Translations under genes and position numbers: made by a program
The notes under the pieces: model-generated
Told to the model about the DNA's origin: nothing
The model's input: the letters and a program-made list of their open reading frames with translations, nothing else
Databases searched by the model: none
Part shown: positions 3,270 through 64,000 of the stretch, in pieces
Layout of the letters: each line of letters starts with the position of its first letter
How positions within the stretch are numbered: position 1 is the stretch's first letter
NCBI GenBank assembly: GCA_964483175.1
Contig: CAZAAT010000001.1
Coordinates: 7,292-71,291, forward strand
From: an uncultured Bacilli bacterium
GTDB lineage: Bacteria; Bacillota; UBA5301
DNA length: 64,000 nucleotides
Reading direction: 5' to 3'

Positions 3270-4361
3270 CTACTCCTTGCTCTCCTTGGGCAGCTTGCGA
3301 ATGATCGCGATTACTAAGGTCAACAGCGGTATTCCGAATTCATAAATCGGGTGCCGCAAGAGCATAGTTTTGTAGACAAACTCCATATATTCTGAGGTAT
3401 TAATAAAGTTATTGGCAAATAAGGCCACCAGAATCGCGCCGATCGGCAGTACCAGAGGTAGATATGACCGGAGACCCAGGATCTGGGCCAGCCCTAGACA
3501 GGTACAATAGTAAAATACTGAGAGTTTAAGAAAACCTGTCATCAAAAACTCAAAAGCAACCAGCAGCTCCAGACGAGTAAACGTTTCACCGTAATTGATC
3601 CGGCGCGCCGCAGTAAAAGAGGGATAGACATACATGCCTGCATCCGGGCCGAGAACAGCGGTATTGCGGGCAGTAATGAGCGCCAAGAATAATCCGACAA
3701 AGACGATCCCCTTTAAGACTGCACGCCGACCTTCATGCTGATCATTTAGAAATGGCATGACCATTAAAAAGACGACCGTCTCGGCCAAGGGGAAAACTGT
3801 GGCATCATGAGCAGCCAAGAACAACCGCAGGAGCGGGGTCTCCAGTATCGGTTCTATATATTCCGGATGGACCTCTTTGAACAGTAGTACGGTGACCCCG
3901 ACAATGCTGACCACTACCAACGGTACCAAGATCTGGCTGCAGCGAGCGATAACCTCAATGCCATTACGAACAGCCGTAGCGCAAACCAATAATAAGGCAG
4001 CTGCAATGACCCAACGAGGTGTCTCAGGCATCACGATGTTGATAAACTTCGTACAATCCCACATCACCAGTGACCCAAGAAATAGGAAAAACCAGACATA
4101 TAGCGCGGCAACTACCGTACCCAAATACTTGCCATAGACAGTGGTCCCAATCTCCACCAAATTTTGACCTTTAAACCGACGGGCTAAGGCTAGAAAAACC
4201 AGGGCAAAAAGTACCGCCTCAACAATTGCCACTAGAATAGCAATCCAGGCATCCCGCTCCGCCAGCCTAGCCGGGGGGACTATCAGGGCACTGCCAAAGA
4301 TAAAGCCAATTGCTAAGGTGGTCAATTGAGCGCCGGAAATAAGACCCTGTTCTAATTTCAT
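3270..4361 (-). CDS. Spore germination protein, GerAB/GerKB family (amino-acid-permease-like integral membrane subunit)
   Basis: 363 aa multi-TM protein with Spore_permease-like N-terminus MKLEQGLISGAQLTTLAIGFIFGSALIV. Downstream of GerAA and GerAC homologues. Confidence 0.8.
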   Translation of the reverse strand: MKLEQGLISGAQLTTLAIGFIFGSALIVPPARLAERDAWIAILVAIVEAVLFALVFLALARRFKGQNLVEIGTTVYGKYLGTVVAALYVWFFLFLGSLVMWDCTKFINIVMPETPRWVIAAALLLVCATAVRNGIEVIARCSQILVPLVVVSIVGVTVLLFKEVHPEYIEPILETPLLRLFLAAHDATVFPLAETVVFLMVMPFLNDQHEGRRAVLKGIVFVGLFLALITARNTAVLGPDAGMYVYPSFTAARRINYGETFTRLELLVAFEFLMTGFLKLSVFYYCTCLGLAQILGLRSYLPLVLPIGAILVALFANNFINTSEYMEFVYKTMLLRHPIYEFGIPLLTLVIAIIRKLPKESKE

Positions 4362-26902: not shown

Positions 26903-27592
26903 CTAGTCACGAAATTGGCAGTCTTCTAACGAACATCGGCTGCACTCGCTTTTTCCCTGTTGCTTTAGGTCGTTAGTTCCAATCCCGATTAACGCAGTAA
27001 TCGATTTGCGCGGAACTAACAGCCCGGATTTATTTAGGCTAATCCCAACCCGATCTCCCTGGGTTAATGGGAATAGGCTGTGTTGTGCTTCTAGTGGCCA
27101 ATCATTGTACCCGGGACTGATGCGATCACCAGCGATTAATCCGATCTGCCCAGCTCGTTGGCGCACTGTTTGATTGACCCTCTCCGCTAAGGATTCGACT
27201 GCCACCGACCCCGCGGCGTCTAATACAGCGCCCTTAGTGTATTCGCCCCGCTCGAAAAGGGAATTTACCTCATCCTCAAGTTTGGAGCCAATAGTTACAG
27301 CAAAAAGATATGCCCGACTGATTCGGCCAAGACGCCGAATAGTTCGGGCCCCGGATATTTGCAGGCTGTCGCCGATTCTGATCTCCTGTTCAGAGATTAC
27401 CGCAGGATAGTCAAGGCCGATCCCCGCTGGTCTGACGAGCTCAAAGGCGAACTCACACATTTGCCGGCAAACTGCCATTGCTTCGGGGGTCGGGGGGCTT
27501 TTCTGAGCGCGATGACCCAGGTACCGTAAGACCTCGGAGAGTTCGATCCGAACCTCAAGATCTGTCCACTGCCCGTCTAACCCGATGCGCAT
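26903..27592 (-). CDS. Stand-alone methionine synthase activation-domain protein (Met_synt_B12 / AdoMet-binding reactivation module)
   Basis: 229 aa; motifs ...YLFAVTIGSKLED..., ...RISPGYNDWPLEAQHSLFPL... characteristic of the MetH C-terminal reactivation domain. ATG has GGAGG 8 nt upstream. Immediately upstream of metH, as in Clostridia/Thermotoga split MetH. Confidence 0.75.
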   Translation of the reverse strand: MRIGLDGQWTDLEVRIELSEVLRYLGHRAQKSPPTPEAMAVCRQMCEFAFELVRPAGIGLDYPAVISEQEIRIGDSLQISGARTIRRLGRISRAYLFAVTIGSKLEDEVNSLFERGEYTKGAVLDAAGSVAVESLAERVNQTVRQRAGQIGLIAGDRISPGYNDWPLEAQHSLFPLTQGDRVGISLNKSGLLVPRKSITALIGIGTNDLKQQGKSECSRCSLEDCQFRD

Positions 27593-28432: not shown

Positions 28433-29389
28433 CTACAGATCCAGGTCTGCAAAGGCCTTTTCGATCTCAATACCGGTCAAAGGTCGGGGATAATTGTAAA
28501 AGGTCTGTCCGGGGCGCTCATTGTAATAGGGGCGATTGCATCCGGGACAACCGCTGGTACGAAAAGCTGTACCGGCGGAGAGCAACCCCTCCAACTCGGA
28601 ACGAGAATAGCCGAAATCGCGGATCTGACCGTCCGCAGAAAAAGATAGCTCTAAGGGCAACCCCGAAGCCAACAAGTAATTTAGCACCTGAATCCGACGG
28701 TACTGATCAAGCGGTGGTGGAGGTAGCTTGGCTAACCTGGTCCCGGGAACCGGGGTGAAGGCGAAAAGACCCACCCGCACTCCAACAGACCAAAAATCCT
28801 TTAGGATCTCGGCAGCATCTGCCTCGGTCTCACCAAGTCCGATGATCAAATGGGTCGATATCTTGCCTGGATAAGTTAGGGCTGCCTCTTTAATTAAACG
28901 GTAAACTCGGGAGTAGTCCCCGTTTTTGGTCTGGTGAAAAACCCAAGGAGTCGCGGCATCAAGTGGAATACCGATCCGGTCCAATCCGGCTTGCAGTAGT
29001 CGGCCAACCTCTTCCGTGCTTTCCGGTAGGAGTGAGCTACTGATCGGAATTTCTGCCAGACCCGGAGTTTTCCTAATCTTCCCAACAAGCTCATGCAACT
29101 GGCTCACCCGCTGCGGCCCGATTACGGTTTGGATACAAATGCGGGCAAATGAATTCTGCAGCAATTGCACTTGTTCCGGGCGGAGCAAATCCGCAACCTC
29201 AAAGGTCGGCCAAGAAATCCGCGACAACCACTTGTGGTCACTCTGGCTGGACCTGGCTTGCGGGCAGAAGCCACAATCGCTACGACAGTCACCTGCCATC
29301 AATAAGTAACAGGTCGACGGCTTCTCTACCATCTTTGCCCGAGCGAGGCCCAGGACAACGGCGCTGCCTAAACTGACTCTAATCTGCAT
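28433..29389 (-). CDS. Radical SAM protein, second of a tandem pair in the gcv operon; candidate LipS-type lipoyl synthase subunit
   Basis: Single CxxxCxxC (CRSDCGFC) about 30-50 aa from the N-terminus, a GLGE-type glycine-rich segment, and extra Cys pair CPGC near the C-terminus. The start is ambiguous: 29389 ATG, 29410 GTG or 29332 ATG. No LipA-type N-terminal CX4CX5C. Function inferred from context. Confidence 0.5.
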   Translation of the reverse strand: MQIRVSLGSAVVLGLARAKMVEKPSTCYLLMAGDCRSDCGFCPQARSSQSDHKWLSRISWPTFEVADLLRPEQVQLLQNSFARICIQTVIGPQRVSQLHELVGKIRKTPGLAEIPISSSLLPESTEEVGRLLQAGLDRIGIPLDAATPWVFHQTKNGDYSRVYRLIKEAALTYPGKISTHLIIGLGETEADAAEILKDFWSVGVRVGLFAFTPVPGTRLAKLPPPPLDQYRRIQVLNYLLASGLPLELSFSADGQIRDFGYSRSELEGLLSAGTAFRTSGCPGCNRPYYNERPGQTFYNYPRPLTGIEIEKAFADLDL

Positions 29390-30278
29390 CTCCATCACCA
29401 TAAAGAACACAACACTGCCAAAAATCTTCTTGCAGCATGCCTAGATATTCTGCTAACTGAAGCGCCCCGGGAGTTGGTTGAACTATCGCGTTTACCCCTG
29501 CCAACACGGCATAACGGTCAACTTCTTGACGATATCTGCCCGCCGGCCGCATACAGCCAAGGGTTACCCGCAGTTGCGGATAGTCGCGGCCCAGGGTGGC
29601 AAAGAACTCCGCTACCTCCGAAGGCTGAGGTGGTTGGCGATCAGCCAATCTTGTCCCCTTGGTGGGAATGAAGATCAGTACCACTAATTCACGAAATCCA
29701 GCCTTTTCTAGCAGCTTGACCGCATTTAATTCCGAGCTGAGCCCAGGCTCTTCAGACAGGCCCAGACAGAGATGTGGCACGACGCGCCGAAATCGGGATA
29801 ACAACAACAGCGAGTCCAATGCTTCAGCAACTGAGTAGTTCAAACCATAAATCTTCCGTAGGGTAGATTCATCACCGACAAAATCACAGGAAAAGACGGA
29901 GGCTACCTCAGCAAGTTGCTGAGCAGCCTCGAGACTCTGCACATAACCAGGGTGCAAGTTTAATTTATATTTCTTCCTTAGGGTCTTGATCGTTGCCAAG
30001 TGCGGCAGGATCGGAACAACCCCGGCTCCATCACAAGCCCCGCTAATCAGAAGACTTTTCCACGGGGAGGATTCCCTTTGCGCAACCTCCAGCAGAGGTT
30101 TCATCGCCTTTAGGTAGTGCCCTCCACAATGGGCACAATCCTGTGGACAAGCCTCCGAGGTAACCCTAACGGTTGCGGTGCCTGTCGGACGAACCGCGAG
30201 TAAAGTCGGGGCATGGTATTTTAACCGCTCCTGACGGACCTCCAACAAGCCAAGTTCGAGTTGGCTAAACCTCTCCAC
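29379..30278 (-). CDS. Radical SAM protein, first of a tandem pair in the gcv operon; candidate LipS-type lipoyl synthase subunit
   Basis: 299 aa with GTG start 2 nt after the gcvPB stop (UAAuGUG). CxxxCxxC (CPQDCAHC), ISGACDG SAM-binding-like motif, and additional cysteines (CLGLS, GCMRPAG, C-terminal QCC) that could ligate an auxiliary cluster. Confidence 0.5.
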   Translation of the reverse strand: MERFSQLELGLLEVRQERLKYHAPTLLAVRPTGTATVRVTSEACPQDCAHCGGHYLKAMKPLLEVAQRESSPWKSLLISGACDGAGVVPILPHLATIKTLRKKYKLNLHPGYVQSLEAAQQLAEVASVFSCDFVGDESTLRKIYGLNYSVAEALDSLLLLSRFRRVVPHLCLGLSEEPGLSSELNAVKLLEKAGFRELVVLIFIPTKGTRLADRQPPQPSEVAEFFATLGRDYPQLRVTLGCMRPAGRYRQEVDRYAVLAGVNAIVQPTPGALQLAEYLGMLQEDFWQCCVLYGDGDAD

Positions 30279-30279: not shown

Positions 30280-31749
30280 TTAACCCCGCCATCTCAGATC
30301 CGGATTGCGAGCTGCCGCGGTTTCATCTAACCTGTACACCGGCAGCTTAGTTGGTGCCTGCTGTAATAGCTCCGGATTTTGCTCGGCTTCGTGGGCAATT
30401 TGACGCATCACCTTGACAAAATCATCCAAGGTCTCTTTGCTCTCCGTCTCCGTAGGCTCGATCATCATCGCCTCCTCGACAATCAGCGGGAAGTAGATCG
30501 TCGGAGCATGAATACCAAAATCGAGCAATCGTTTGGCCATATCCAGAGTTTTCACCCCGTTGGCCTTTTGCCGTGAACCGGATAGCACAAACTCGTGCAT
30601 ACAGCGGCGCTGATACGGCAGATCAAAGTAGTCTTTTAATTGTTCTAACAAATAGTTGGCGTTGAGCACCGCATTTTCCGCAACCGCCTTCAGCCCGCTA
30701 GAGCCCATTTGTCGGATGTAGGTGTAAGCCTTCAACGCTACGAGAAAATTACCGTAGTAACCCTTGACTCTGCCGATTGACTGCGGTAAATCGTAATTAA
30801 ACTGGTAATTATCCGCCGCTTTGATCACTCGTGGTAGCGGCAGAAACGGCTCAAGTATCTTTTTGACACCGACCGGACCGGAGCCCGGGCCGCCGCCGCC
30901 ATGCGGTGCCGCGAAGGTCTTGTGCAAATTTAGATGGATTACATCAAAGCCCATATCTCCCGGACGGGTGATCCCGAGAATGGCGTTGGCATTTGCTCCA
31001 TCATAATACAAGAGTCCGCCGGCATTATGAATAATCTCAGCTATCTCCAGAATGTTCTCTTCAAACAAGCCCAGAGTATTCGGGTTGGTTAACATCAGTG
31101 CTGCTGTTTGCGGACCAACGACCCGCCGCAAAGCCTCAATATCGACATTGCCCCGGTCATCGGATGGCACCTCCACCACTTTGAAACCGCACATAGCCGC
31201 GCTGGCCGGATTGGTTCCGTGCGCCGAGTCCGGAACAATTACCTCTCGGCGCATCGCCAACTCCCCGCGATGGCGATGGTAAGCCTTGATCAACATCAGC
31301 CCTGTCAACTCGCCATGAGCTCCGGCGGCTGGTTGCAGAGTAAAAGCATCCATACCCGTTATTTCACAGAGGTACTGCTCGAGCTCAAAGATCACCTGTA
31401 AAGAACCCTGGCAAGTCTCTTCTGGTTGGAGGGGATGAATACCGGCAAACCCATCCAAGCTGGCCACATCTTCGTTGATCTTCGGATTGTATTTCATTGT
31501 ACAGGAACCAAGAGGATAAAAACCCCTATCTACGCTATGGTTGAGCTCTGACAGTCTGGTAAAATGGCGAACAACCCCGAGCTCACTCACCTCCGGTAAG
31601 ACCGGAGGATTTTGCCGCAACAAGTTTTCTGGGAGGATGGCTGATAAAGGTTGGGCTGGAACATCTAAAGCCGGCAGTGAGAAACCGGTCCGCCCGGGGA
31701 CGCTTTCGGCAAAGATCGGCTTAACTCCAGCGGTATGACTGACTCTCAT
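30280..31749 (-). CDS. gcvPB: Glycine dehydrogenase (decarboxylating) subunit 2 (P-protein C-terminal half, PLP-binding)
   Basis: 489 aa with PLP-lysine motif [18 protein letters not shown]. Overlaps gcvPA by 4 nt. Confidence 0.9.
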
Positions 31750-33089
31750 AACAACCCCCCCATTACTTTAACCAGATAATCCAGCTCTTCTTTGGTCCGC
31801 TGCTCGGTAACGCAAAAGAGCACTAGATCATCGAGCTCAGGATAGTATCTGGCCAGAGGAAGCGGTCCAAGGATTCCATATTCGACCAACCGGCTGAACA
31901 GCTCTTCCGGGTTGGCCTTGACCCGTAGGGTAAACTCATGGAAAAATGGGCCCGGTAAACCTGGACTGACCCCTTCAATGTTCAACAGTTGATCGTACAA
32001 ATAATGTGCTTTCTGGACGGAATGCTCAGCTACCTTCGCCAAGCCTTGCGGGCCTAACAGCGAAAGATATACTGTTGCCGCCAACGCATTAAGGGCTTGG
32101 TTCGAACAAATATTCGAAGTGGCCTTCTGGCGCCTGATATGCTGTTCTCTCGCCTGCAGAGTCAATACGTACCCGCGGTTTCCTGCGGCATCAGTTGTAG
32201 CCCCGACAATTCGCCCCGGCATGCGCCGCAGATACTTTTCGCGGCAGGCCAGATAGCCCAAGTGAGGGCCGCCAAAAGCCATCGGATTCCCCAACGCTTG
32301 CCCCTCACCACAGGCGATATCTACACCTAATTCTCCTGGTGGTTTCAGTAGACCGAGAGCGATCGGATTGGCCGCACAGATCAGCAAAGCTCCGTGGGCG
32401 TGCGCGATTTCAGCTAGTTGCTCGATACCTTCTTCAATTTGACCAAAAAAATTGGGATATTGCACGATAACTGCAGCGGTTTGCTCATCGACAAGATCCC
32501 GAAGCTGTTCCACAGAAGGCTTTCCGTCACTAAGTGCCCCAACAACCAGCTGTAAATCCAGGAAGTCACAATAAGTCGCTAAAACGCGTTGGTACTCCGG
32601 ATTAATGCTGGCTGAGGCCACAACTTTGGATCGCCGGGTAGCTCCCGTAGCCATTAAGGCCGCCTCCACCAACGCAGTAGCTCCATCATACAAAGATGCG
32701 TTAGAGACATCGAGTCCAGTAAGGTTGCAAATCATGGTCTGATACTCGTAAATAGCCTGGAGGGTTCCTTGGCTAATCTCTGCTTGGTACGGAGTATAGG
32801 CGGTATAGAACTCGGAGCGCCCCAAAATATGCCGAACAACGCTCGGGATATAGTGGTCATATGTACCAGCGCCTAAAAAAACCATAGCCTCAGCTGAACT
32901 AATATTTCGCGCAGCCAAAGACTTCAGGTTTTTTATCAAGATCGGTTCCGGTTCCGGCGCGGGTAATTTCAGCTCTCTGGTCAAGCGCAGACTAGCCGGG
33001 ATATCCGCAAAAAGCTCGGCAACCTGCTCTACGCCAATAGCTGCCAGCATCTCAGCTTGATCGGCAGGGGTATTTGCGATAAATGACAC
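31746..33089 (-). CDS. gcvPA: Glycine dehydrogenase (decarboxylating) subunit 1 (P-protein N-terminal half)
   Basis: 447 aa with N-terminal region ...[15 protein letters not shown]...[13 protein letters not shown] typical of GcvPA. Confidence 0.9.
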
Positions 33090-33093
33090 AGGC

Positions 33094-33477
33094 TCACTCT
33101 CCTTCTATAAAAGCCTCATACTCCTGGTTAGTCATCAGCTTATCGAGTTCGGTTAGGTCCAGCATCTCAATTACCGCAATCCATCCATCGTTATAGGGAT
33201 CCTGATTTAATAATTCCGGACTATCTTCCAAATTGTCATTGACCTCAACAACTGTTCCAGAAATCGGTGCATAAACATCCGATACGGCTTTAACTGACTC
33301 GACCACCGCAAAATCATCGCCCTTAACGACCTCCTGACCGGGCGAGGGAAGGTCGACAAAGACTACATCACCTAATTCTTTTTGCGCATAATCGGTAATC
33401 CCGACAATGGCCCGTTTTCCACTGATTCTAATCCATTCGTGTTCCTTGGTGTACTTTAAATCAGAAGGGTTCATCAC
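33094..33477 (-). CDS. gcvH: Glycine cleavage system H protein (lipoyl carrier)
   Basis: 127 aa with lipoyl-lysine motif FAVVESVKAVSDVYAPISG. Confidence 0.9.
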   Translation of the reverse strand: MMNPSDLKYTKEHEWIRISGKRAIVGITDYAQKELGDVVFVDLPSPGQEVVKGDDFAVVESVKAVSDVYAPISGTVVEVNDNLEDSPELLNQDPYNDGWIAVIEMLDLTELDKLMTNQEYEAFIEGE

Positions 33478-33489
33478 TAATACCTCCGT

Positions 33490-34599
33490 TTACGATCTTT
33501 TTGTATATGGTTGAACAAATGGGACCGAAACTACTTGGGCTTCAACCAGTTTTTCGCGGATCTTGACCCAAATCCTACTTCCCGGCTCTGAATAGGGAAG
33601 GGTTACATAACCAAGGCCGATATTCTCCTCCAAAGTTGGTGCGAAAGAACCACTGGTTACCGACCCAATAACCTCCGCAGAACTATTTAAGATTTCATAT
33701 CCGTGACGGCAGACACCCCGCCCGATCATTTTGAACCCAATCAAAGATCTAGAAAGACCTTCTTCTTTCTTGGCGACTAACGCTTTTTTACCGATAAAAT
33801 CGCCTTTATCTAATTTCACCGTCCAACCCAAACCGGCTTCCCACGGGCTTATTTCCTCAGTCAACTCCTGGCCGTACAACGGATAAGCCAATTCTAAACG
33901 CAAGGTGTCCCGGGCCCCGAGTCCAACGGGCACAAGCCCGGTACCAGCACCGGCCTGCCTCAGCTCTTGCCAGAGAAAGCTTGCATCAGCTGCATCGACA
34001 TATAGCTCAAAACCGCGCTCCCCGGTATAGCCAGTTGCCGAAATCATGGCCGGCCGACCAGCCACCCTGCCCTCGACAAACGAATAGAACTTTAATTGGG
34101 AGAGATCCTCAGAACAAAGCTTGCCTAAAATCTCCTCGCTCTTGGGGCCTTGGATCGCTAACAAGGCGGTTTCGGCCGACTGGTTAACCAAATTAACGCC
34201 GGTACTCGGCAAATAATTGGCGAACCACTCCCAATCCTTGTCGGTATTGGCTGCATTAACCACCACCAGATACCGTTCACGATCGTAGCAATAGACAATG
34301 AGGTCGTCGACGACCCCACCATTTTCAGTACAGACTAAATTATACTGCGCCTTACCTGGCATCAACTTTGCCAGGTTGTTGGTCAAAAGTCGGTTCAAAT
34401 AATCATAAGCTCCCGGCCCTGATACATAGAATTCACCCATATGTGAAAGATCAAACAGTCCTGCGCTATTACGTACCGCCCGATGCTCCTCTAGGATCGC
34501 GGTATATTGAACCGGCATTTCCCAACCGCCAAAAGGAATCATCTTGGCTTTTAGGCCCACATGTTCTGCATAAAGCGGAGTTCTTTTCCATTCAGACAT
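33490..34599 (-). CDS. gcvT: Glycine cleavage system T protein (aminomethyltransferase)
   Basis: 369 aa with the GcvT fold. RBS GGAGG 8 nt before ATG. Confidence 0.9.
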   Translation of the reverse strand: MSEWKRTPLYAEHVGLKAKMIPFGGWEMPVQYTAILEEHRAVRNSAGLFDLSHMGEFYVSGPGAYDYLNRLLTNNLAKLMPGKAQYNLVCTENGGVVDDLIVYCYDRERYLVVVNAANTDKDWEWFANYLPSTGVNLVNQSAETALLAIQGPKSEEILGKLCSEDLSQLKFYSFVEGRVAGRPAMISATGYTGERGFELYVDAADASFLWQELRQAGAGTGLVPVGLGARDTLRLELAYPLYGQELTEEISPWEAGLGWTVKLDKGDFIGKKALVAKKEEGLSRSLIGFKMIGRGVCRHGYEILNSSAEVIGSVTSGSFAPTLEENIGLGYVTLPYSEPGSRIWVKIREKLVEAQVVSVPFVQPYTKRS

Positions 34600-34620
34600 A
34601 CGTCGCCCTCCTTCGCTGAA

Positions 34621-34710
34621 TAAAAAACAGAGTAGAGAATTGGCTCTCCTCTGTCCTGATGCCTGAGAGATAAACTGCTCTGATCGCTACACAGAGGTCT
34701 CTCTTAACTA
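34621..34710 (-). promoter_or_regulatory. Glycine-riboswitch-like leader element with intrinsic terminator (ON-switch architecture) upstream of gcvT
   Basis: Minus-strand RNA reads AAGAGAGACCUCUGUGUAGCGAUCAGAGCAGUUUAUCUCUCAGGCAUCAGGACAGAGGAGAGCCAAUUCUCUACUCUGUUUUUA. The block UCUCUCAGGCAUCAGGACAGAG is identical at 19 of 22 positions to the glycine aptamer 3-prime consensus ACUCUCAGGCAAAAGGACAGAG, and a GAGAGA lies upstream. CAGAGGAGAG/CUCUaCUCUG forms a terminator stem followed by UUUUUA and overlaps the aptamer P1 3-prime strand. The P2/P3a segments and a GCCGAAGGAGCAA core could not be located by eye, so this is a variant, a singlet, or only partly recognised. Confidence 0.4.
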
Positions 34711-34980
34711 GAATCACCCGGCGGGGATGATATTTATTTGCAGTCCACCATCATCTGCTATTATTTTATCTCTTTACTGGATATTCCTACCGCTAAGCCA
34801 AAAGATTTGCTCAAATAGACCAAAAAGCCGACCGAGCTATATAATATGAACGGGTTAGTTCCGTCGGCTGAGGGGGGATACTATGGAACGCATACTCCAA
34901 CTATTACTAAACCCAATCTTAAAAAGGGCACAAAAGACCGTCATTATCATTAGAAAGCGCAGAGCATAGAGTAATTATAA

Positions 34981-35030
34981 CCACCGGAAGTGCGGAAGCA
35001 CCAAGGTGGTGTTTTTTATCCGCACTTCGA
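34981..35030. terminator. Nested inverted repeats spanning the nrdJ stop codon: bidirectional terminator-like structure
   Basis: CCACC(34981-85)...GGTGG(35005-09) hairpin followed by TGTTTTTT on the plus strand. Perfect 10-bp arms GAAGTGCGGA (34987-96) / TCCGCACTTC (35019-28) give a long hairpin on the minus strand after the nrdJ TAA. Confidence 0.45.
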
Positions 35031-39162: not shown

Positions 39163-40023
39163 TTAAAAACATCCTGCAGGCTTTTCGAATCTCACTTGAC
39201 ACATTTCAAAGACAGAACATCTGGTTTGGCAGAGATCAGAATCGCCAAAATGACATCCGCGCCTAGCTAGAGCAACCAATGGTAAAACATCGCCAGCAAA
39301 ATAATCGCTAACAACTTTGAGACAGTCTGAACTCCGGATGTCGCGGAGAAAAAACAAGTCTGCGCCCACAAAGCCTAGAAACCAAAGGGGGATTTTCACA
39401 TCATTATCAACAGCCAGACAAGCTTTTTTGTCTAAATCCGGCCAAACCCCGGCATATTTCATCTCCCGGCAATACCAATAAGCGCGCTGGTCAATCCCTG
39501 CAAACTGCCGCAGTGTGGTCACCACATCTGTATCCATATGATGCCGCCCGTAGACCTGTCTGATATCCCCACCATAGTCCGACTGTACTCGCACCGCCGC
39601 TTGCACCAAAGCCTCCGCCTTGCGCTGACGTGGGGTCAAAGCCCGATAATAACGGGATAATACAGATAAGACCTTAATCACCGCACCGGGCTCAACCAAG
39701 CGGTTGATCGCTGTTAGTCCGGCTTGACGCAAGTGCCAAAAAGTTGTGCTAACAACGGACTGTTGCACTTTGGCCCCTAAGAGGATTGCGTAAAGTAATA
39801 ATTCAAAACACCCATCCGCTGTTGTTAGGTTAATTTGCCACCTTTGGTCATCAAGGGGGAATACCTGCTGAGGTTGGGGATAACGCTGATAATCCTCTAT
39901 GACCAAGTTTGCTATTTTCATTAAATCAGTACAATTTGATCTAATCCCAAACAAAAAAACCAGCCTCCTCCTGGATTGGCTGGCTCTAAATATAGCTATA
40001 GCATTATTTATCATTATTGTCAA
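39163..40023 (-). CDS. Hypothetical protein, possibly HhH-GPD-type DNA glycosylase-like, with C-terminal 4-Cys cluster (CX7CX3CX5C)
   Basis: 286 aa; C-terminal CHFGDSDLCQTRCSVFEMC resembles the [4Fe-4S] loop of the EndoIII/MutY family. The helix-hairpin-helix assignment is weak (LRQFAGIDQ). Confidence 0.3.
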   Translation of the reverse strand: MTIMINNAIAIFRASQSRRRLVFLFGIRSNCTDLMKIANLVIEDYQRYPQPQQVFPLDDQRWQINLTTADGCFELLLYAILLGAKVQQSVVSTTFWHLRQAGLTAINRLVEPGAVIKVLSVLSRYYRALTPRQRKAEALVQAAVRVQSDYGGDIRQVYGRHHMDTDVVTTLRQFAGIDQRAYWYCREMKYAGVWPDLDKKACLAVDNDVKIPLWFLGFVGADLFFLRDIRSSDCLKVVSDYFAGDVLPLVALARRGCHFGDSDLCQTRCSVFEMCQVRFEKPAGCF

Positions 40024-44919: not shown

Positions 44920-45441
44920 TTAGACCTCCTTATCACCTACAGCATCTTCGGAAAATCGCCGGATGAACCAGGCAAAAAACAGACCAGATAGCAAGGTCAG
45001 CACGGCAAAGGTCGTCAGCTTAAATAAAATGCCCCCTGACTCGATGGTCAAGTACCCGTACATCGCCGATCCACCAAGATCATACACCAAAGCCAGTAGA
45101 GCCAAGCCTAGCTGGGCTAAAGCCACCTGTCCCTGGCCGCGCGCTTGAAAGTACTGTTGAATTAGAGCCGCACCCGAACCGAAAATCACTGCCATCGCAA
45201 CCATCACATCAACGGGGATGCCGAAAATGGCAAATCCCTCGGCCTGATAAGACCAGAATCCTTGCAGGTAAGCGATGATTTCAAAGGGCAGGCGCACTAC
45301 GAAGAAGATCAGTCCGGTAGCCCAAATCCCCTGCTTCTCTACTGAAGAAAGCTTCTCCCGCTTAATTAATAAGTACACGACCAAAATGCTAATTGCAAGG
45401 GTTCGCACTCGAAAACCTGAAAATCCTGACAACCAGCTCAT
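44920..45441 (-). CDS. Hypothetical integral membrane protein (5 TM)
   Basis: 173 aa. Stop is 3 nt before the metG start, so the metG RBS lies inside it and the two are co-transcribed. Confidence 0.5.
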   Translation of the reverse strand: MSWLSGFSGFRVRTLAISILVVYLLIKREKLSSVEKQGIWATGLIFFVVRLPFEIIAYLQGFWSYQAEGFAIFGIPVDVMVAMAVIFGSGAALIQQYFQARGQGQVALAQLGLALLALVYDLGGSAMYGYLTIESGGILFKLTTFAVLTLLSGLFFAWFIRRFSEDAVGDKEV

Positions 45442-55564: not shown

Positions 55565-56236
55565 TTAAAACCGACCGGGAAATCGCTGACCTAGAGCAGC
55601 AATGCTCTCGGCAAAGATTTGCTCGGGTGCTTTATCTTTGGTGCTAATCACAACGAACCGCTCCGGTTCTGCGGCCGCTAACTGTAAATACCCCCAACGT
55701 ACCCTGGCATGGTAGGCCGGTGCTCTGCGCTCAATCCGGTCGCCGCCGGCGATCCCCTCGAGCGAACTTGCACCGATGGCTCGATTAATTACGCTTTGCG
55801 GATCGACATCGTATAACAAGGTAAGATGGGGCTTTAATCCTCCGGTGGCAGCTTCATTAATTAATTTAACTTTTTGCAGATACTGCCGGCCTAATCCATA
55901 ACCCTGATAAGCGATGCTCGAATCCACATAGCGTTCTGAAATCACAACTTTACCTTGTTGGAGAGCCGGTAAAATCACCTGTTTGACTAGCTGCGCCCGG
56001 GAGGCTGCGTAGAGCAACATCTCGGTCTCGGGAACCATATCGGTATACCGAGGATCGAGGATAATTGCCCGGGTCGCCTCTCCGATCAGAGTTCCGCCAG
56101 GCTCTCTTGTTACCAGGAAATCAATCCCCTGGTTAGCAAGATATTCTTTTAATAAGTTGGCTTGGGTAGTTTTACCAGAACCATCACTACCCTCTAACGT
56201 AATAAACAAGCCCTCAGCACTGACTGCTGCAGTCAT
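55565..56236 (-). CDS. tmk: Thymidylate kinase
   Basis: P-loop ITLEGSDGSGKTT, DRY-like and lid motifs. 223 aa. Confidence 0.9.
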   Translation of the reverse strand: MTAAVSAEGLFITLEGSDGSGKTTQANLLKEYLANQGIDFLVTREPGGTLIGEATRAIILDPRYTDMVPETEMLLYAASRAQLVKQVILPALQQGKVVISERYVDSSIAYQGYGLGRQYLQKVKLINEAATGGLKPHLTLLYDVDPQSVINRAIGASSLEGIAGGDRIERRAPAYHARVRWGYLQLAAAEPERFVVISTKDKAPEQIFAESIAALGQRFPGRF

Positions 56237-57834
56237 GAAAGATCCCCTCTGTCGTCCGGAGCAGTGATCACCACATGGCGATATGGTTCTTCTCCGATAC
56301 TCTGAGAGGTCAGGTTGTAGCTAGCTGCCAATTGATGTTGAAGCCGCCGGATATAGGAATTCTGTGGTTTTAATGCTACCGGATGACGCTCAGCCAAGAC
56401 AGTTTTGGCCGCGTCTTCAGCTTCGATAATTGGTTCGTCTATCCCATCATACAACAGATCTTGCAGATACTTTTCCATCTGCGTAACCGTATTGCTACGG
56501 ATAGGATAAATCGGCAGATTGCGCCCGGCCCCCTCTTTGAGCTTTTTCGGCATCTTGTGGTATTGTCCCTTTAGGGTCAGAATAACATCGGCCAACTGCA
56601 AATCCTTGACAATATGCACCGGCGCCCGCAAGTTGCTAATTGCCTTCTCCAACCTGTTGCGGCTGATCCCGTAGGGATAAATATGTAAAATGCGATCTAC
56701 TGATGTAGCTGGATGAGCAAATCGCGAGTCTTTTTGGATCCTTTTCCCATTACTACGATCACGGCGGAAATTTGGCTGATATGACAGATAATCTGCTTGA
56801 GCCTCTTTTTCCTTTATCTCCAGCGGGCCGGCATTTTGGATAACTTCTATCTCACCCTCCGGAAAACGCTGCCTGATCTCGGGTTGGGGGTCGTAACCCC
56901 GTAGTAAGAGGTCTACGGTGGCGGCCACATCATGATGAATGGCAAACCGATCCCGTTCTTGGATCTCGACAAGGATATCAAAGGTCGGCGGATGCTTGCG
57001 TTCTAAAACCGTCTTTTGTGTGCCCCGACGCTTAGCTTCCTCATCCCCCAAGGTCACAGCTTGGATACCGCCCACCAAATCCGAAAGAGTTGGGTTGGCT
57101 ATCAGATTTTCAAGGGTGTTTCCATGTGCCGTGCCCACCAGTTGGACGCCACGCTCAGCAATTGTCCTTGCTGCCTCAGCCTCAGCTTGGGTCCCAATCT
57201 CATCAATGACAATAACCTCGGGCATATGATTCTCGACCGCTTCAATCATGACCTCTGCTTGCAACTCGGCCCGCCCTACCTGCATGCGCCGGGCTCGGCC
57301 TATTGCCGGGTGCGGAATATCACCGTCTCCGGCGATTTCGTTTGAGGTATCTACAATGACCACCCGTTTGCCAAACTCGGTCGATAAAATGCGCGCTGTT
57401 TCCCTAAGCAAAGTAGTTTTGCCCACACCCGGACGACCCAATAATAATACACTCTTCCCGGTTTCAATCACATCGCGCACGATATCGAGCGTACCATAGA
57501 CTGCCCGTCCAATCCGACAGGTAAGGCCGATCACATCACCCCGACGATTGCGAATCGCCGAAATCCGATGCAAGGTGCGTTCGATCCCAGCTCGGTTATC
57601 AGATCCAAATGAGCCTAGTCTGGCCGTTACATAATCAAGATCTTCCCTGGTTACCGAGATTTCGGAGACATAATCGCGTCCATGGTCAAAACGTAATTCT
57701 AGTTGACGGCCCAGATCCATAACGATCTCAACTAGCTCTTGTTTGTCGGGCGAATCAACGATGATCTTGGTGATATGGGGCGGCAATACCTCTAATAGCA
57801 GATCAAGGTTATCCGTAACTGAGCCTTTTTTCAC
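56233..57834 (-). CDS. SpoIIIAA-like P-loop ATPase fused to a C-terminal R3H-type nucleic-acid-binding region (Ycf45-like family)
   Basis: Walker A LLLGRPGVGKTTLLRE, SpoIIIAA-like core VVIVDTSNEIAGDGDIPHPAIGRARRMQV...EVIVIDEIGTQAEAEAARTIAERGVQLVGTAHG, and about 200 aa of C-terminal basic/aromatic region. Overlaps tmk by 4 nt. Confidence 0.5.
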   Translation of the reverse strand: MKKGSVTDNLDLLLEVLPPHITKIIVDSPDKQELVEIVMDLGRQLELRFDHGRDYVSEISVTREDLDYVTARLGSFGSDNRAGIERTLHRISAIRNRRGDVIGLTCRIGRAVYGTLDIVRDVIETGKSVLLLGRPGVGKTTLLRETARILSTEFGKRVVIVDTSNEIAGDGDIPHPAIGRARRMQVGRAELQAEVMIEAVENHMPEVIVIDEIGTQAEAEAARTIAERGVQLVGTAHGNTLENLIANPTLSDLVGGIQAVTLGDEEAKRRGTQKTVLERKHPPTFDILVEIQERDRFAIHHDVAATVDLLLRGYDPQPEIRQRFPEGEIEVIQNAGPLEIKEKEAQADYLSYQPNFRRDRSNGKRIQKDSRFAHPATSVDRILHIYPYGISRNRLEKAISNLRAPVHIVKDLQLADVILTLKGQYHKMPKKLKEGAGRNLPIYPIRSNTVTQMEKYLQDLLYDGIDEPIIEAEDAAKTVLAERHPVALKPQNSYIRRLQHQLAASYNLTSQSIGEEPYRHVVITAPDDRGDLS

Positions 57835-57856: not shown

Positions 57857-59302
57857 TTATATCACTACTCTAATCTGACGGGGAACCCCGCCATTGGTAC
57901 CAGCTATGTTAAATCCATAGATCGCGAGCTCCTGTAAATATTGTATTTGCTCCTGAGTGATAATTTCCCCCGGAATCACTACCGGAATCCCTGGCGGATA
58001 AGGTGCTATAATTTCAGCGGCAATCCTCCCTGCCGCTTGAGTCAGCGAGACTTCGGCCGAATCGGCAAAAAAGGCTTCGCGCGGCGTCATGGCCAGGTCT
58101 GAAAATCCCGGCATCACCGGCGGATCAGGTAACCTGCCCCCCTGGTTATACTTTGCTGCCATATGGCGTAAAGCCTGCTCAAAACGGTTTGTTCCGTCTC
58201 TGGTATCGCCCGGCCCCAATACAGCTAGCACCCGCCGGAAATCAGCCATCTCTGTCTGAATTTGGTGTTCTTGGCGCAAAATAGCAGCAGCTTCCAAGCC
58301 GGAAAGGCCTAAGTCGGAAAAATCCAGGACCAATTTGGTGCGGTCATAGTCCGGATAGCCCAAGGATCGGATTTCCTCGTCGCCAAGCACTTTAATTCCT
58401 GGGAGATCTTTGACCCTGGTCCGAAAATCAATGGCCAGGTCAAGGGTATCGCCTACCAGTTGCTCACCGGCCTCGGCTAATTGAAATACAGCCGCCTCTA
58501 AAGAAGCCAAGAGCAAAAACGACGGGCTCGTCGATTGGATGACATCGACAAATCGTCCTATGTTTATATGGCGCCAATCTTCGGCGACATGCAACATCGA
58601 GCTGCCGGTTAGGGAGGTTAAGAGCTTATGGGTACTCTGAGCTACTAGATCTGCTCCAGCCTGCAGGGCCGCCAGCGGCAGATCGGCAGAAAAACAAAAA
58701 TGAGGGCCATGAGCCTCATCAACCAATAATGGAACCCGATATTCATGGGCAATTTGAGCTATTTGAGTCAAATCAGCTGCGAAACCATAATAACTGGGAT
58801 TTTGGGTGAAAACCGCGGAAATGCCATCGGTCGTACTAAGCACATAACGTAACTGGTCGGGGTCAAGCCGAGAGTCTGGTAGGTCAGGGCTTGTCCGTTG
58901 TGGGTTTAATAAAATAGGGGTACAACCGGTGATAATTGCGGCGCTGATGACCGAAGTATGAACCTGCCGTGGCATAATAACTTTGCCTTGTTTGCCGACG
59001 GCCATAAACATAGCTTGGATACCGGCAGAAGTCCCATTAGTCAGAAAAAAAGTCTCAGCAGCTCCAAACAATGCAGCTGCTTTCTTTTGGGCGGTGGTTA
59101 AAAGCGCGGTCGGAAGAACCCATCTTTGCCCGCATGGTAATAACGGCGGATCAATATCCAGTTTCAATCCCCACCGTTCTAAAGCTGCTTTTAATTTGGC
59201 TTCTATCCCCGCACCCTGTTTATGACCCGGGGTATGCAGAGGCAAAATACCCTGGCTACAGTAATCAATGACTGCATCCAAAAAAGGTTGTTTCAGTGCC
59301 AA
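57857..59302 (-). CDS. Orn/Lys/Arg decarboxylase family protein (YaaO-like, PLP fold type I)
   Basis: 481 aa; major-domain motifs ...STHKLLTSLTGSSMLH (PLP-Lys). Conserved position upstream of tmk as Bacillus yaaO. Confidence 0.8.
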   Translation of the reverse strand: MALKQPFLDAVIDYCSQGILPLHTPGHKQGAGIEAKLKAALERWGLKLDIDPPLLPCGQRWVLPTALLTTAQKKAAALFGAAETFFLTNGTSAGIQAMFMAVGKQGKVIMPRQVHTSVISAAIITGCTPILLNPQRTSPDLPDSRLDPDQLRYVLSTTDGISAVFTQNPSYYGFAADLTQIAQIAHEYRVPLLVDEAHGPHFCFSADLPLAALQAGADLVAQSTHKLLTSLTGSSMLHVAEDWRHINIGRFVDVIQSTSPSFLLLASLEAAVFQLAEAGEQLVGDTLDLAIDFRTRVKDLPGIKVLGDEEIRSLGYPDYDRTKLVLDFSDLGLSGLEAAAILRQEHQIQTEMADFRRVLAVLGPGDTRDGTNRFEQALRHMAAKYNQGGRLPDPPVMPGFSDLAMTPREAFFADSAEVSLTQAAGRIAAEIIAPYPPGIPVVIPGEIITQEQIQYLQELAIYGFNIAGTNGGVPRQIRVVI

Positions 59303-59508
59303 TCACCTCTAAGTAAGTGCTGAACCTCGTTGAAAAAACACTCCCCGATTAACCTGGCTCTTAACAGATAGCCATACTGCTGAGGGGTAGAGGCTAACAG
59401 ATCCTCTTCGCACTGCCGACACAAACACCCCGCACCGACCCTAGTAAAAGGGGCTCGGATGCTACCGCAAATCACACATCTTAAACCAGTCATCGCCATT
59501 TGACCCAC
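59293..59508 (-). CDS. Gin/CsfB-like small zinc-ribbon protein (anti-sigma-G family), tentative
   Basis: 71 aa with C-V-I-C ... C-x2-C-E-E-D pattern (CVICGS...CLCRQCEED) matching the CsfB zinc-binding spacing. AAGGAG RBS. Lies upstream of yaaO-tmk as csfB does in Bacillus. Confidence 0.45.
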   Translation of the reverse strand: MGQMAMTGLRCVICGSIRAPFTRVGAGCLCRQCEEDLLASTPQQYGYLLRARLIGECFFNEVQHLLRGDWH

Positions 59509-59574
59509 TCCTTAAGGGTAAGAGTCCCCCCTAGGTACCACCCTATTCCCTCCAGCAAGGAGCGGTGCTTGTCG

Positions 59575-61500
59575 TCAGCTTCCTTTTTCTTCCCGCATAG
59601 CCGGACCGGCCAGCCGTCTATCCCCGACTCGCTTGGTCCATTTGATTCCGTCAAAATATTCTAGTAAAGCAATAGCATACTTGCGGCTACTATTGGTTCG
59701 GTCACGAAAATCAGCCGCATCAAAATTACCTTGTTCCTGCACCAGAGTTTTCGCCACCTCTTTGGCCACCGAAAGATTGGTCGTGTGAAAATAAAGATTA
59801 TCTGAAACTTTAACCAATACCTCACGCAGAATTAGGTAATTCAGAATCTCGTTTAAACTCTTTTCGGAGAGTTGGAATTCCGCGGCTACATCAACCAGAT
59901 TCGGCGGGGTTAAGCCACTGTTCAAAAACTCGGTACCAATCCGCTCAGCTAAAGCCGCTTCATCCGGGCTCAATTGCAGACCCTTGCCCGGCAATCCGAT
60001 CTCTTTATCATAAACAACGATCTCTCCCCGTTCGGCCCAGATGGCTAGCAGATTGCTGAAATGGCGGTTCTCCCAAGTCGGAACCAAGCGGCTCCGCAGT
60101 TCTTCTTTTGAATATCCCTTGCGCAAGGGATATTGTTCGTGAAACGCGTCTAAGAGATCCTTAGCCTCCGACCACAGCTCCTGTTCACCGCTGGAAAACA
60201 AGAATACTTGGTTATTCTCTAAATCGATAATCTCCTCTTGTCTAAGCAAGTTTCGTAGTTCTGTCCGGATCGTGGCAGGATCAAGTAAAGTTTTTTTCCT
60301 TAACCGCTCCCGGGTAAAAGTATCCCGTGGTGCACCCTCAAAAGCCAGGCGCAACAAATCAGCCGGATCACCGGCCTCTTCCCGGCGCAGAATCTCAGAA
60401 GTTTTGGGATTATTACGTTTCCAGCGTAGAGGATTGCTACTTAAAACCTTGCCTCCGCCAATGGTATGGGCTGGGGAGTAAGATCTGATTACAAAAAGAT
60501 CTCCTCTTGCTGCCACTATCGGCTCCTCAAAGATAATTTGACAATATCCTGAACCACCTGGCTCGATCTGGTCGGCTTCTAAAGTCCGCAATCTAGCTAA
60601 GACCTCGCTAGTGCCGATATGCACCCGAATCCGTTCTCGGTGGATAAGTTCTTTACCACTAGCCAGAACGGATATTTTGGCATCGATCATTTCCGTTGGT
60701 TCGATGACCTCAGGCTCTAAAATAACATCTCCCCGCTTGAGTTCGCTTTTTTCCACTCCGGTTAAGTTCAGGGCGACGCGATGGCCAGCACCGATTGACT
60801 CTACCGGCTCGTCATGAACCTGGATCTGACGGATCTTAGCCCGAACTCCAGCGGGCAGGATCTCCACTTCATCCTTAAGGTTAAGGGTGCCCCCAAGCAG
60901 AGTGCCGGTAACCACCGTGCCATGACCGGAGATTTGAAAGACTCGATCAATCGGCATCCGCAGCAATTTAGATGGCTCGCTTTTGGCCGCCTCAGCAACC
61001 ACCGACTCCACCTTGGCCAGAAGTTCTTGAACCCCTTCGCCTGTAACCGCGGAAACAGGCACCAACGGCGCCTCGGCCAGGCTCGTCCCGACCAATTGCT
61101 CGCGGATTTCCTCCTGAACCAGTTCAAGGAGTTCTTCATCAACAAGATCCATTTTGGTTACCGCCACAACCCCATATTTGACCTGAAGGATATCAATGAT
61201 ATCCAGGTGTTCTCTGGTTTGCGGCATTACTCCCTCATCAGCAGCCACCACCAGGATCACGACATCGATACTGCTAACCCCGGCTAGCATATTCTTAATG
61301 AAGCGCTCATGACCGGGAACATCAATGATCGCCGCGCGTTTTCCGCTAGGCAGAATAAAAGGGGCGAACCCCAAATCTATCGTTAGTCCGCGTTTCTGTT
61401 CCTCGGCCCATCTATCGGTGTTGATGCCGGTTATCGCCTTGACCAGGGTAGTCTTGCCATGATCAACGTGGCCGGCGGTACCGATAATAATCCTACGCAT
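59575..61500 (-). CDS. selB: Selenocysteine-specific translation elongation factor SelB
   Basis: GTPase N-terminus [17 protein letters not shown]-Tu-like domains II/III and C-terminal winged-helix SECIS-binding domains. 641 aa. Confidence 0.9.
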
Positions 61501-62913
61501 CTACTTACTTACCTCCCGGCTCTTACTGAGCAGACTTGCGATCACGGGAATTTCTTCATCAAAGATCGTCCGTGCACTAATTAGCAAGCGCTCCTGATTA
61601 AGCCGCCCGATGAGCGGCGGTGTTTGTTGACGTAACCATCTTTCAAGATGCAGCGGTGTTATCCAGGGCAAGGCCACGGAAACCGCTTTGCTCGGTATTT
61701 CGGTGCCAGGCAAAGACCCGCCGCCAGCCTCGGAAATGTCGTCAATTACTTCGACCATCGCATCTTGACCACAGTGTTGCCTGATCACCTCGGCCAATTT
61801 TTGCGCCCGTAACTCGACCACTTTTATGGGTTCGGTCAGCATCCGTAAGGTCGGGATCTGCTGGAGCGCTAGGCTGGGGACCAAATACAATTTAAGGGTT
61901 GCCTCCAGCGCCGCAAGGGTCATTTTGTCAATCCGCAATGCCCGAGTCAGTTGGTTTTGCTTAATTCGCTGAATCAAGTCGCGTTTACCGACGATAATCC
62001 CGGCTTGCGGTCCTCCCAAGAGCTTGTCTCCACTAAAAGTGACAATATCTACACCCGCCTGAACACTCTGCTGTACCGTAGGTTCAGCTGGAAGCCCGTA
62101 AGCCGCAAGGTCTACCAATACGCCGCTTCCTAGGTCTTCGATCAGCAATTTTCCCTGATTATGAGCAAGCTCTGCCAATTGCGCCAGATCAACCGAAGCA
62201 GTAAAACCTTGAATGCGGAAATTGCTCGTATGAACCTTTAAAATCACTTTGGTCTCAGGTGATATCGCCTCGGCATAATCCCTGAGGTGCGTCTTATTGG
62301 TAGTTCCAACTTCGCGCAAAATGGCTCCGCTGCGCGCCATTACCTCTGGAACCCTAAAGGATCCACCGATTTCAACTAGCTCACCCCGGGATACGATCGC
62401 CTCTCCGCCTTTGGCGAAGGTATCTAAGGCTAGCATAATGGCTGCGGCATTGTTGTTTACTACTAAGCCGGCCTCGGCTCCAGTAACCTGAACAAGTAAC
62501 TTTTCAACATGGGAATACCGCGATCCCCTCTCGCCTTCTGCTAGATCATACTCCAAATTAGAAAAAGATGCGGCGATTCGGCTTACTGCCGCCTGGGCTG
62601 TAGGAGCTAGCGGCGACCGGCCAAGATTGGTATGGATAATGACCCCTGTCCCATTAATCGCTGGTCGTAGATGCAAATCCTGCTCCCAGTTTGCAAAAAA
62701 TTCGGCCAGCCGACCATCCCAGCCCGTACTGTCATCCGGGACCTGGGCCAGTCCGGAAAGAACCTGCTGCCGCAGTTCACCAATGTATAGGCGGATCAGG
62801 TCCACCACCGCGTCGCGCTGCCAACGCTCGGCTTGTCTAACAGCAGAAGGCAATTCGAGCAGCTCATTAACTGGGGGAATACGTCGCAGTTGTACATTTG
62901 GCTCTTGTTCCAC
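61501..62913 (-). CDS. selA: L-seryl-tRNA(Sec) selenium transferase SelA
   Basis: 470 aa; PLP-lysine region ...DIVTFSGDKLLGGPQAGIIVGK... Abuts the selB start. Confidence 0.9.
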   Translation of the reverse strand: MEQEPNVQLRRIPPVNELLELPSAVRQAERWQRDAVVDLIRLYIGELRQQVLSGLAQVPDDSTGWDGRLAEFFANWEQDLHLRPAINGTGVIIHTNLGRSPLAPTAQAAVSRIAASFSNLEYDLAEGERGSRYSHVEKLLVQVTGAEAGLVVNNNAAAIMLALDTFAKGGEAIVSRGELVEIGGSFRVPEVMARSGAILREVGTTNKTHLRDYAEAISPETKVILKVHTSNFRIQGFTASVDLAQLAELAHNQGKLLIEDLGSGVLVDLAAYGLPAEPTVQQSVQAGVDIVTFSGDKLLGGPQAGIIVGKRDLIQRIKQNQLTRALRIDKMTLAALEATLKLYLVPSLALQQIPTLRMLTEPIKVVELRAQKLAEVIRQHCGQDAMVEVIDDISEAGGGSLPGTEIPSKAVSVALPWITPLHLERWLRQQTPPLIGRLNQERLLISARTIFDEEIPVIASLLSKSREVSK

Positions 62914-62917
62914 TTCC

Positions 62918-63964
62918 TTATCCCTCCAAGAACAGGGTCTTTGACTCTTGTTCGCAAAATTCGCCTACTACCGCAGCCGGAATGCCCTGATGTTGCAATG
63001 CCTGCAGCAGCGGTTGTTCCTGGTCAGCCGGGATGGCAAAGAGCAACCCACCTGAGGTCTGCGGGTCAGCGGCTAACTCGACATAAACTGGATCTACTGA
63101 GGAGGCAATCTCCATCCGCTCCTCAAAAAAATGAAGGTTGGCCATCAATCCGCCAGGCAAATAACCTTGCTTAGCATATTCAAACGCCCCAGGCAACAAC
63201 GGTAGCTGACTGGTAAAGATCTTAACACTGACATTACTACCTGCCGCCATCTCACCCAGATGCCCCAAAAAGCCGAATCCGGTAATGTCGGTACAGGCGC
63301 GAACAGAAAATTCGGCGGCGGTTTCGGCGGCTAGTTTATTAAGTGTAGCCATTGATTCTACCATCGCCTTGATATGCTCCGCATCTGCTTTGCCTTTTTT
63401 CACAGCTGTGCTAATAACCCCGGTTCCGAGTGGTTTGGTCAGGATTAAACGATCTCCCGGTCGAGCACCCGCATTAGACCATACCTTTTCCGGATGAACT
63501 ATCCCGGTAACCGCCAAACCGTACTTGGGCTCGTCATCTTGTACGGTGTGGCCGCCCAATAGCAATGCCCCCGCCTCCTGAACCTTCTCTGCCCCGCCAC
63601 GGAGAATCTCGCCGAGAATAGCCAGATCCAAGTTACACGGAAAGCAGACGATATTTAATGCTATCAAGGGACGACCACCCATCGCCCAGACATCGCTGAG
63701 CGAATTGGCCGCTGCAACCTGTCCATACCAATATGGATCATCTACAATCGGAGTAAAAAAATCTAACGTTTGCACTAAAGCTGTATTGTCGTCGAGCTTA
63801 TATACTGCGGCATCGTCTACAGTGTTAATTCCAACCAACACATTCTCATCGAAAGGTATTTGCGGTAAGTGGCGAAGCACTTGATCCAAGGCCCCTGGAC
63901 CAAATTTAGCTGCTCAACCAGCCTTCGATGAGAGCTGGGTCAATTTGACTTGTTCTACACTCAT
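62918..63964 (-). CDS. selD: Selenide, water dikinase SelD, itself a selenoprotein (in-frame UGA = Sec at 63914-63916)
   Basis: The ORF track begins at a TTG at 63889. Reading the same frame upstream gives MSVEQVKLTQLSSKAG-U-AAKFGPGALDQVL..., starting at ATG 63964 with AGGAGG 8 nt upstream. The single TGA sits exactly where E. coli SelD has GAG-C-GCK. AIR-synthase-like fold downstream. Confidence 0.85.
63883..63913 (-). promoter_or_regulatory. Candidate bacterial SECIS hairpin immediately 3-prime of the selD UGA codon
   Basis: mRNA UGA-GCAGCUAAAUUU-GGUCCA-GGGGCC-UGGAUC: a 6-bp stem (one G-U pair) with G-rich apical loop starting 12 nt after UGA, the spacing expected for SelB-dependent recoding. 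Confidence 0.4.
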
Positions 63965-64000
63965 TGCTGCAACCTCCTTACTATGAGTCTTTGCACAAAC

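Follow-up and report, generated by a model that had tools for sequence, protein, structure and literature searches.

The window analyzed here, a 64,000-nt stretch of DNA from an uncultured Bacilli bacterium, carries near its end three tightly spaced genes that code for homologs of SelD, SelA, and SelB (Table 1). When the minus strand was read over 62800-64000, the selD start codon ATG was located at 63964-63962 and the stop codon TAA at 62920-62918, with exactly one in-frame stop between them, the TGA at 63916-63914. The N-terminus of the product reads MSVEQVKLTQLSSKAG, followed by the TGA and by AAKFGPG, and the longer translation from the ATG runs as MSVEQVKLTQLSSKAG, TGA, AAKFGPGALDQVLRHLPQ and onward. 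In the list of open reading frames (ORFs), selD appears as a 323-aa frame with a TTG start at 62918..63889 on the minus strand. This agrees with the original prediction, according to which the ORF track truncates selD at an in-frame UGA and the same frame reaches an upstream ATG at 63964 through that single TGA. The public gene call (P0001) is 100% identical and has 320 aa, a length consistent with a GTG start at 63880. Since P0001 is shortened too, the truncation is a real annotation problem that goes beyond the ORF track alone. The perfect ribosome binding site claimed for ATG 63964 was likewise read in the sequence, as AAGGAGG at 63979-63973, and AAGGGGG stands at the homologous position, ahead of the same start codon, in the relative L001.

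Table 1. Features of the selD locus, in window coordinates.
Feature	Position	Strand	Description	Basis
selD, full-length	62918..63964	-	348 codons plus TAA stop; codon 17 is UGA (predicted Sec)	Translation, TIGR00476, 3u0o alignment
Shine-Dalgarno AAGGAGG	63973..63979	-	8 nt upstream of the selD ATG	Read from the sequence
In-frame TGA, predicted Sec codon 17	63914..63916	-	Catalytic Cys/Sec position	E. coli Cys17 alignment; relatives
Putative SECIS hairpin	63880..63904	-	5' arm 63904-63896 UUUGGUCCA, loop 63895-63889 GGGGCCU, 3' arm 63888-63880 UGGAUCAAG	nt 13-37 from the U of UGA
selA, L-seryl-tRNA(Sec) selenium transferase	61501..62913	-	GTG start 4 nt after the selD stop	TIGR00474, 594.3 bits (cutoff 267.9), full length
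selB, Sec-specific elongation factor	59575..61500	-	ATG abuts the selA stop	TIGR00475, 400.7 bits (cutoff 242.25)

Selenocysteine Apparatus and Neighboring Genes

The presence of selB and selA directly downstream of selD, which had been proposed from the sequence, was supported by the profile matches (TIGR00474, TIGR00475), the actual order being selA and then selB. The SelB protein is predicted to carry C-terminal winged-helix domains of the type that binds SECIS elements, and the identical SelB protein in L161, a locus that is 100% identical to the window over 11,083 nt, matched the Pfam families WHD_2nd_SelB and WHD_3rd_SelB. The tRNA search of the window found none. The earlier remark that selC is not in the window is literally true, yet a tRNA-Sec is located 91-187 nt past coordinate 64000 in L161, where it occupies 1472-1568 and was recognized by both ARAGORN (anticodon TCA) and Rfam (RF01852, 77.7 bits). 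L161 reaches 1,658 nt past coordinate 64000, and in it 126 nt separate selC, which the window does not include, from the selD ATG downstream. A tRNA-Sec directly upstream of selD was also found in L001, L002, L003, L082, and L163. A terminator-like hairpin and a TATAAT-like box were observed at the homologous upstream place in L001 (250-360).

Upstream of selC lies a formate dehydrogenase-N (FDH-N)-type operon that codes for a TAT-signal alpha subunit, a 4Fe-4S beta subunit, and a cytochrome b gamma subunit. In L161, a cytochrome b gene (Ni_hydr_CYTB) and an FdnH-type ferredoxin-like gene were located upstream of selC (2-1373); this locus ends before the alpha-subunit gene of the window's own genome is reached. 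The complete operon was seen in L002 (1051-5601), and the region in L003 spans 1-4038. The FdnG-type alpha subunit of L002 has an in-frame TGA (LEHQARI, TGA, HSSTVAGLAPTYGRGAMTNH), which is shared by the alpha subunit of L003 in the canonical site HQARI-U-HSSTV. The expectation that the organism has further selenoproteins such as formate dehydrogenase is thus supported by the FdnH-like and cytochrome b genes in L161 and by the Sec-type FdnG-like alpha subunits in L002 and L003. Because selC, selD-selA-selB, and the FDH-N operon are adjacent, the locus is a compact selenium-utilization cluster of FDH-N genes, selC, selD, selA, and selB. The closest sequenced relatives, the uncultured Bacillota MAG loci L001 (JAAYHC010000021.1, 87%), L002 (JACDOJ010000001.1, 71%), and L003 (DHRX01000066.1, 67%), share with the window the order selC-selD-selA-selB-PLP decarboxylase, with FDH-N genes upstream. 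Among the 174 fetched loci, selA was found in the selD neighborhood in 130 and selB in 114.

Identity of the selD Product

For the NCBIfam profile searches, U was written as C at residue 17. The selD product matched the SelD equivalog TIGR00476 over residues 7-315 (396.7 bits, cutoff 125) and NF002098 over residues 2-342 (365.2 bits, cutoff 299). Its best PDB match in the phmmer search was E. coli SelD (3u0o), aligned over residues 1-337 with E = 1.4e-77. In this alignment, residue 17 stands opposite Cys17 and residue 20 opposite Lys20 of E. coli SelD, within the 3u0o stretch LTQYSHGAGCGCK, and around the site the query lsskagCaak is paired with yshGAGCGCK. The N-terminus recovered upstream of the TGA therefore aligns with SelD, and the UGA falls on the catalytic Cys/Sec position, as the original prediction held. 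Cys17 and Lys20 are both essential in E. coli SelD, as is known from mutants of the enzyme. The two proteins share Lys20 and the N-terminal glycine-rich loop, whereas E. coli SelD has Cys17 where the window gene has UGA, and hence there is no SECIS in E. coli selD.

Conservation of the UGA Codon

The closest SelDs were compared in 160 relatives, half of them (80 loci) taken from species-representative genomes and the other 80 from metagenomes. Their SelD identity to the window ranges from 48.9 to 87%, and all are Bacillota where named; the closest named record is MAG AS09scLD_310 (87% SelD identity). TGA occupies the aligned codon in every one of the 160 relatives, within the protein motif G-U-AAK, and the nucleotide motif at the Sec site is GGN-TGA-GCN-GCN-AAR in 160/160 loci. 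Codons 6-16 of selD show four synonymous and no nonsynonymous differences from those of L001, the 87% relative, indicating that the segment upstream of the TGA is translated. In addition, L161 (100%) and L162 (99.93%), assembled independently from what is essentially one genome, both carry this TGA.

Structure of the Hairpin Downstream of the UGA

A stem-loop lies immediately 3' of the UGA, inside the coding sequence. The 25-mer at 63904-63880, UUUGGUCCAGGGGCCUUGGAUCAAG, folds at -11.5 kcal/mol into nine continuous pairs, U13-G37 to A21-U29 (numbered from the U of UGA), which enclose the loop G22-U28; the minimum-energy fold adds the pairs G22-U28 and G23-C27 and leaves a GGC loop. The hairpin had been described as a 6-bp stem 12 nt after the UGA with the loop GGGGCC. 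The stem GGUCCA/UGGAUC does occur at 12 nt, but the loop is the 7-nt GGGGCCU and the helix extends to 9 bp. The 33-nt hairpin segment folds at -13.6 kcal/mol, and only 1.0% of the 33-nt minus-strand windows are equally stable. When KFGPGALDQVL was recoded synonymously, 179 of 5,000 recodings (3.6%) were as stable as the native sequence. The fold z-scores obtained with dinucleotide shuffles were modest (-1.1 for 71 nt and -1.7 for 42 nt), and the validated E. coli fdhF SECIS scored -0.9 in the same test.

The bSECISearch model that Zhang and Gladyshev described in 2005 reportedly has the apical loop 16-37 nt from the UGA and a G among the first two loop bases. In the window hairpin, 18 nt separate the UGA from G22 and the loop begins with GG, in agreement with these values for loop distance and leading G. 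The fdhF SECIS of E. coli, whose sequence was verified by a 100% match within fdhF of E. coli genomes, resembles the window hairpin: both follow the UGA immediately on its 3' side within the coding sequence, both are closed by a pair at A21, and in both G22 G23 open the loop. However, fdhF has the 4-nt loop GGUC, the closing pair A21-U26, and a bulged U17 in the stem, whereas the window hairpin has the 7-nt loop (or GGC with the two extra pairs) and a continuous 9-bp stem that contains no bulge. The whole window gave zero Rfam matches at gathering thresholds; in permissive mode, the region 63780-64000 gave a single chance miRNA match, and no bacterial SECIS family covered the hairpin.

Comparative Analysis of the Hairpins

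The monophyletic clade of the window comprises seven distinct Sec-region sequences, namely those of the window, L001, L164, L002, L003/L081, L082, and L171-L174. L081 and L082 were added by a metagenome scan and L164 and L171 by protein search and contig look-ups, and the Sec region of L081 is identical to that of L003. The core of the proximal helix, as we call the helix of the window hairpin, is kept in six of the seven sequences, with 92% of cells paired; L001 and L003 are among those that share the hairpin. Pair 18-32, which is U-A in three clade sequences and G-C in three, is the sole compensatory pair, and its 3' change is nonsynonymous (Asp to Ala). The covariation score of the proximal helix was reached by 63 of 500 shuffles and is not significant, the seven clade sequences including too few independent ones. 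Every one of the six clade sequences with the hairpin also retains the Gly codon GGG, the source of G22-G24, whereas L002 has GGA there. In the RNAalifold analysis of these six sequences, the proximal helix was the only local helix within 90 nt, accompanied by three long-range pairs. The hairpin overlaps the codons of the conserved peptide FGPG.L.Q, and thus part of its conservation comes free. In the family as a whole, represented by 102 distinct sequences, pairing of the proximal helix was 46.5%, a value that does not exceed that of slid controls.

The relatives instead point to a different, distal helix at nt 28-36/40-48. This helix is 77.6% paired across the 102 distinct relatives, with five pairs showing double changes and 131 compensatory cells, and its covariation score was reached by none of 500 shuffles. 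Its core, CAGGUNCUG with the loop GUN, is built from Gln-Val-Leu codons in most Bacillota Sec-selD relatives. The window forms four of the nine distal pairs, in the homologous stretch 63889-63869. L002 is nested in the window clade as sister to the window plus L001; it lacks the proximal helix and forms eight of the nine distal pairs. The selD genes of Clostridium spp. have a short hairpin, with the loop GGG, at nt 14-30. The placement of the hairpin therefore differs among Clostridium (nt 14-30), most other relatives (nt 28-48), and the window clade (nt 13-37), and the hairpin type follows the SelD tree, L002 excepted. In alignment columns 28-48 of relatives L004-L160, the distal hairpin was observed to be shared by most Bacillota Sec-selD genes.

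As to the earlier claim that a SECIS-like hairpin follows the UGA, the hairpin has the place and the loop expected of a SECIS, but the covariation in the clade was within the range of the shuffles and the hairpin differs from that of most relatives. The hairpin at 63904-63880 is probably the functional SECIS.

Discussion

The selD gene of the window most probably codes for a Sec-type selenophosphate synthetase in which UGA encodes Sec at the catalytic site (probability about 0.92, judged from sequence comparison). This reading is based on the family match, the alignment with the catalytic Cys, the universal TGA, the synonymous-only change upstream of it, and the adjacent Sec apparatus. From the same data we infer both that the UGA is decoded as Sec and that this hairpin is the element bound by SelB. 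The second point has a rival, which keeps the UGA as Sec but treats the proximal hairpin as a by-product of the coding sequence. SelB would then rely on a different determinant, perhaps a structure that is weaker or non-canonical, or a fold of longer range with the UGA inside it. The nonsignificant covariation in the clade, the lack of a family-wide proximal signal (46.5% paired), and the strong covariation of the distal hairpin as the family-wide element are all consistent with such a by-product, as is the known heterogeneity of bacterial SECIS elements (PMC12013277). However, the distal hairpin is limited to four of nine pairs in the window and no other consensus helix was detected by RNAalifold within 90 nt in the clade, while the proximal hairpin has an fdhF-like distance, a loop that opens with GG, and a stability matched by only 1% of same-strand windows. 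We therefore regard this rival as unlikely.

Other explanations deny the Sec codon itself. If the TGA were a genuine stop, selD would start at TTG 63889 or GTG 63880, and the 16 codons upstream would be a leader peptide or untranslated. This model was chosen by the gene callers (the ORF track and P0001), and AGGGG stands 11 nt ahead of GTG 63880. However, a protein started at the TTG or the GTG would be devoid of the N-terminal loop that bears the equivalents of Cys/Sec17 and Lys20, all 160 relatives preserve the upstream peptide in frame, the closest one differing there by synonymous changes only, and the strong ribosome binding site stands before ATG 63964, against a downstream start. A genuine stop is accordingly very improbable. 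Reading of the UGA as Trp, Cys, or Gly, through an altered code or near-cognate suppression, is an even more remote prospect. UGA is reassigned in some uncultured lineages, as is generally known, but in the window TGA is the ordinary stop of 12 of the 54 other ORFs, which indicates a genetic code without UGA reassignment, and selA, selB, and tRNA-Sec are adjacent to selD. That the TGA is a sequencing or assembly error or the mark of a pseudogene has a negligible chance, since the same base is found in the two independent assemblies and in every relative, and the remainder of the ORF is intact, with the score of a full-length SelD.

With UGA as a Sec codon, translation of selD would start at ATG 63964, and at codon 17 SelB would deliver Sec-tRNA(Sec), so that Sec is inserted. 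The hairpin at 63904-63880, which begins 9-12 nt past the UGA, would tether SelB to the mRNA and display a G-rich loop about 18 nt past that codon. In the product, Sec17 and Lys20 would belong to the N-terminal glycine-rich loop, which makes up the catalytic site of SelD. The gene heads a selD-selA-selB unit of tightly abutting genes, and the synthesis of a Sec-dependent SelD would require the enzyme's own product.

Sec-type SelDs are common in bacteria. A survey from 2006 counted 38 Sec-SelD genes and found FdhA and SelD to be the two most widespread bacterial selenoproteins, Clostridia included, and its tables list Clostridium perfringens, C. difficile, and Moorella thermoacetica as Sec-SelD hosts (PMC1794560). 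The window gene is similar to the Sec-SelDs of Clostridia and other anaerobes in family, in the G-U-AAK motif, in the position of the UGA, and in the selD-selA-selB neighborhood, whereas the identity of these SelDs to the window is only 50-58%. Read as Sec-type, it is an ordinary SelD that was mis-called as a truncated ORF, and the correction is routine re-annotation in an uncultured Bacillota lineage. Since P0001 and the ORF track cut off the catalytic N-terminus, pipelines that draw on them would record a SelD that has no active site and miss the use of Sec. With the locus corrected, the organism can be recognized as one that uses selenium.

The clade-specific position of the putative SECIS is the only mildly interesting aspect of the gene. 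L002 has the distal hairpin and the rest of the clade the proximal one, while the TGA is constant. The Sec codon is therefore fixed and the predicted recoding hairpin varies from lineage to lineage, in line with published reports of heterogeneity among bacterial SECIS elements (PMC12013277, PMC9312934). The small uncultured Bacillota clade of the window may even have replaced the selD SECIS in place, from distal to proximal, a tentative proposal to which we give slightly less than an even chance. If both hairpins work, the clade would be a clean natural case of SECIS turnover in one orthologous gene with the Sec codon fixed, and such turnover, if true, would provide matched pairs for testing the requirements of SelB. 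The lineage-specific position of the hairpin is also a small but concrete data point on the variability of bacterial SECIS elements, which is the main obstacle to their prediction.

Other Features of the Window

The window was also scanned, in a crude way, for other genes with an in-frame TGA, where 80 or more codons follow the TGA. The only look-alike was the TGA at 11484-11482, upstream of a gene for a class II fructose-1,6-bisphosphatase (GlpX-type); it was rejected as a second Sec site because the product of this gene starts normally at TTG 11448. Pfam scans of 30 further ORFs of the window found no other known selenoprotein family; these ORFs code for housekeeping and sporulation proteins, including MetG, TatD, the glycine cleavage operon, class II ribonucleotide reductase, MetH, MTHFR, SSB, L9, a Lon-like protease, and SipL.

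Downstream of selB, a 481-aa PLP enzyme of the Orn/Lys/Arg decarboxylase family (57857-59302, minus strand) follows in every clade member and in none of the other fetched loci. Its weak similarity to SepCysS/SepSecS had made it a candidate member of the sel cluster, which was rejected on account of its decarboxylase family and of its place at the head of the tmk block; it most likely belongs to this downstream block and not to the sel genes. Past the decarboxylase, the conserved block contains tmk (thymidylate kinase) and the genes for a c-di-AMP receptor, a DUF327 protein, HolB (DNA polymerase III delta-prime), and a PSP1 protein, and presumably corresponds to the Bacillus order yaaO-tmk-darA-yaaR-holB-yaaT. 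Between the decarboxylase gene and tmk, 56233-57834 (minus strand) codes for a 533-aa protein with a SpoIIIAA-like ATPase domain and a C-terminal R3H/Jag-like RNA-binding domain. The 273-nt gap between selB and the decarboxylase gene (59293-59574, minus strand) contains a 71-aa ORF at 59293-59508; the gene call in this gap in L161 has 68 aa and gave no Pfam match.

The glycine cleavage operon (gcvT, gcvH, gcvPA, and gcvPB) occupies 30280-34599. In Bacillota, gcvT is commonly preceded by a glycine riboswitch. Here, the 417-nt leader (34600-35015, minus strand), upstream of gcvT (33490-34599), gave zero Rfam matches even at E <= 1 and thus has no recognizable glycine riboswitch. Four ORFs of 173-299 aa (26903-27592, 29379-30278, 39163-40023, and 44920-45441, minus strand) gave no Pfam match at E <= 1e-5, and two of them flank the lipoate-ligase and radical SAM genes beside the glycine cleavage operon.
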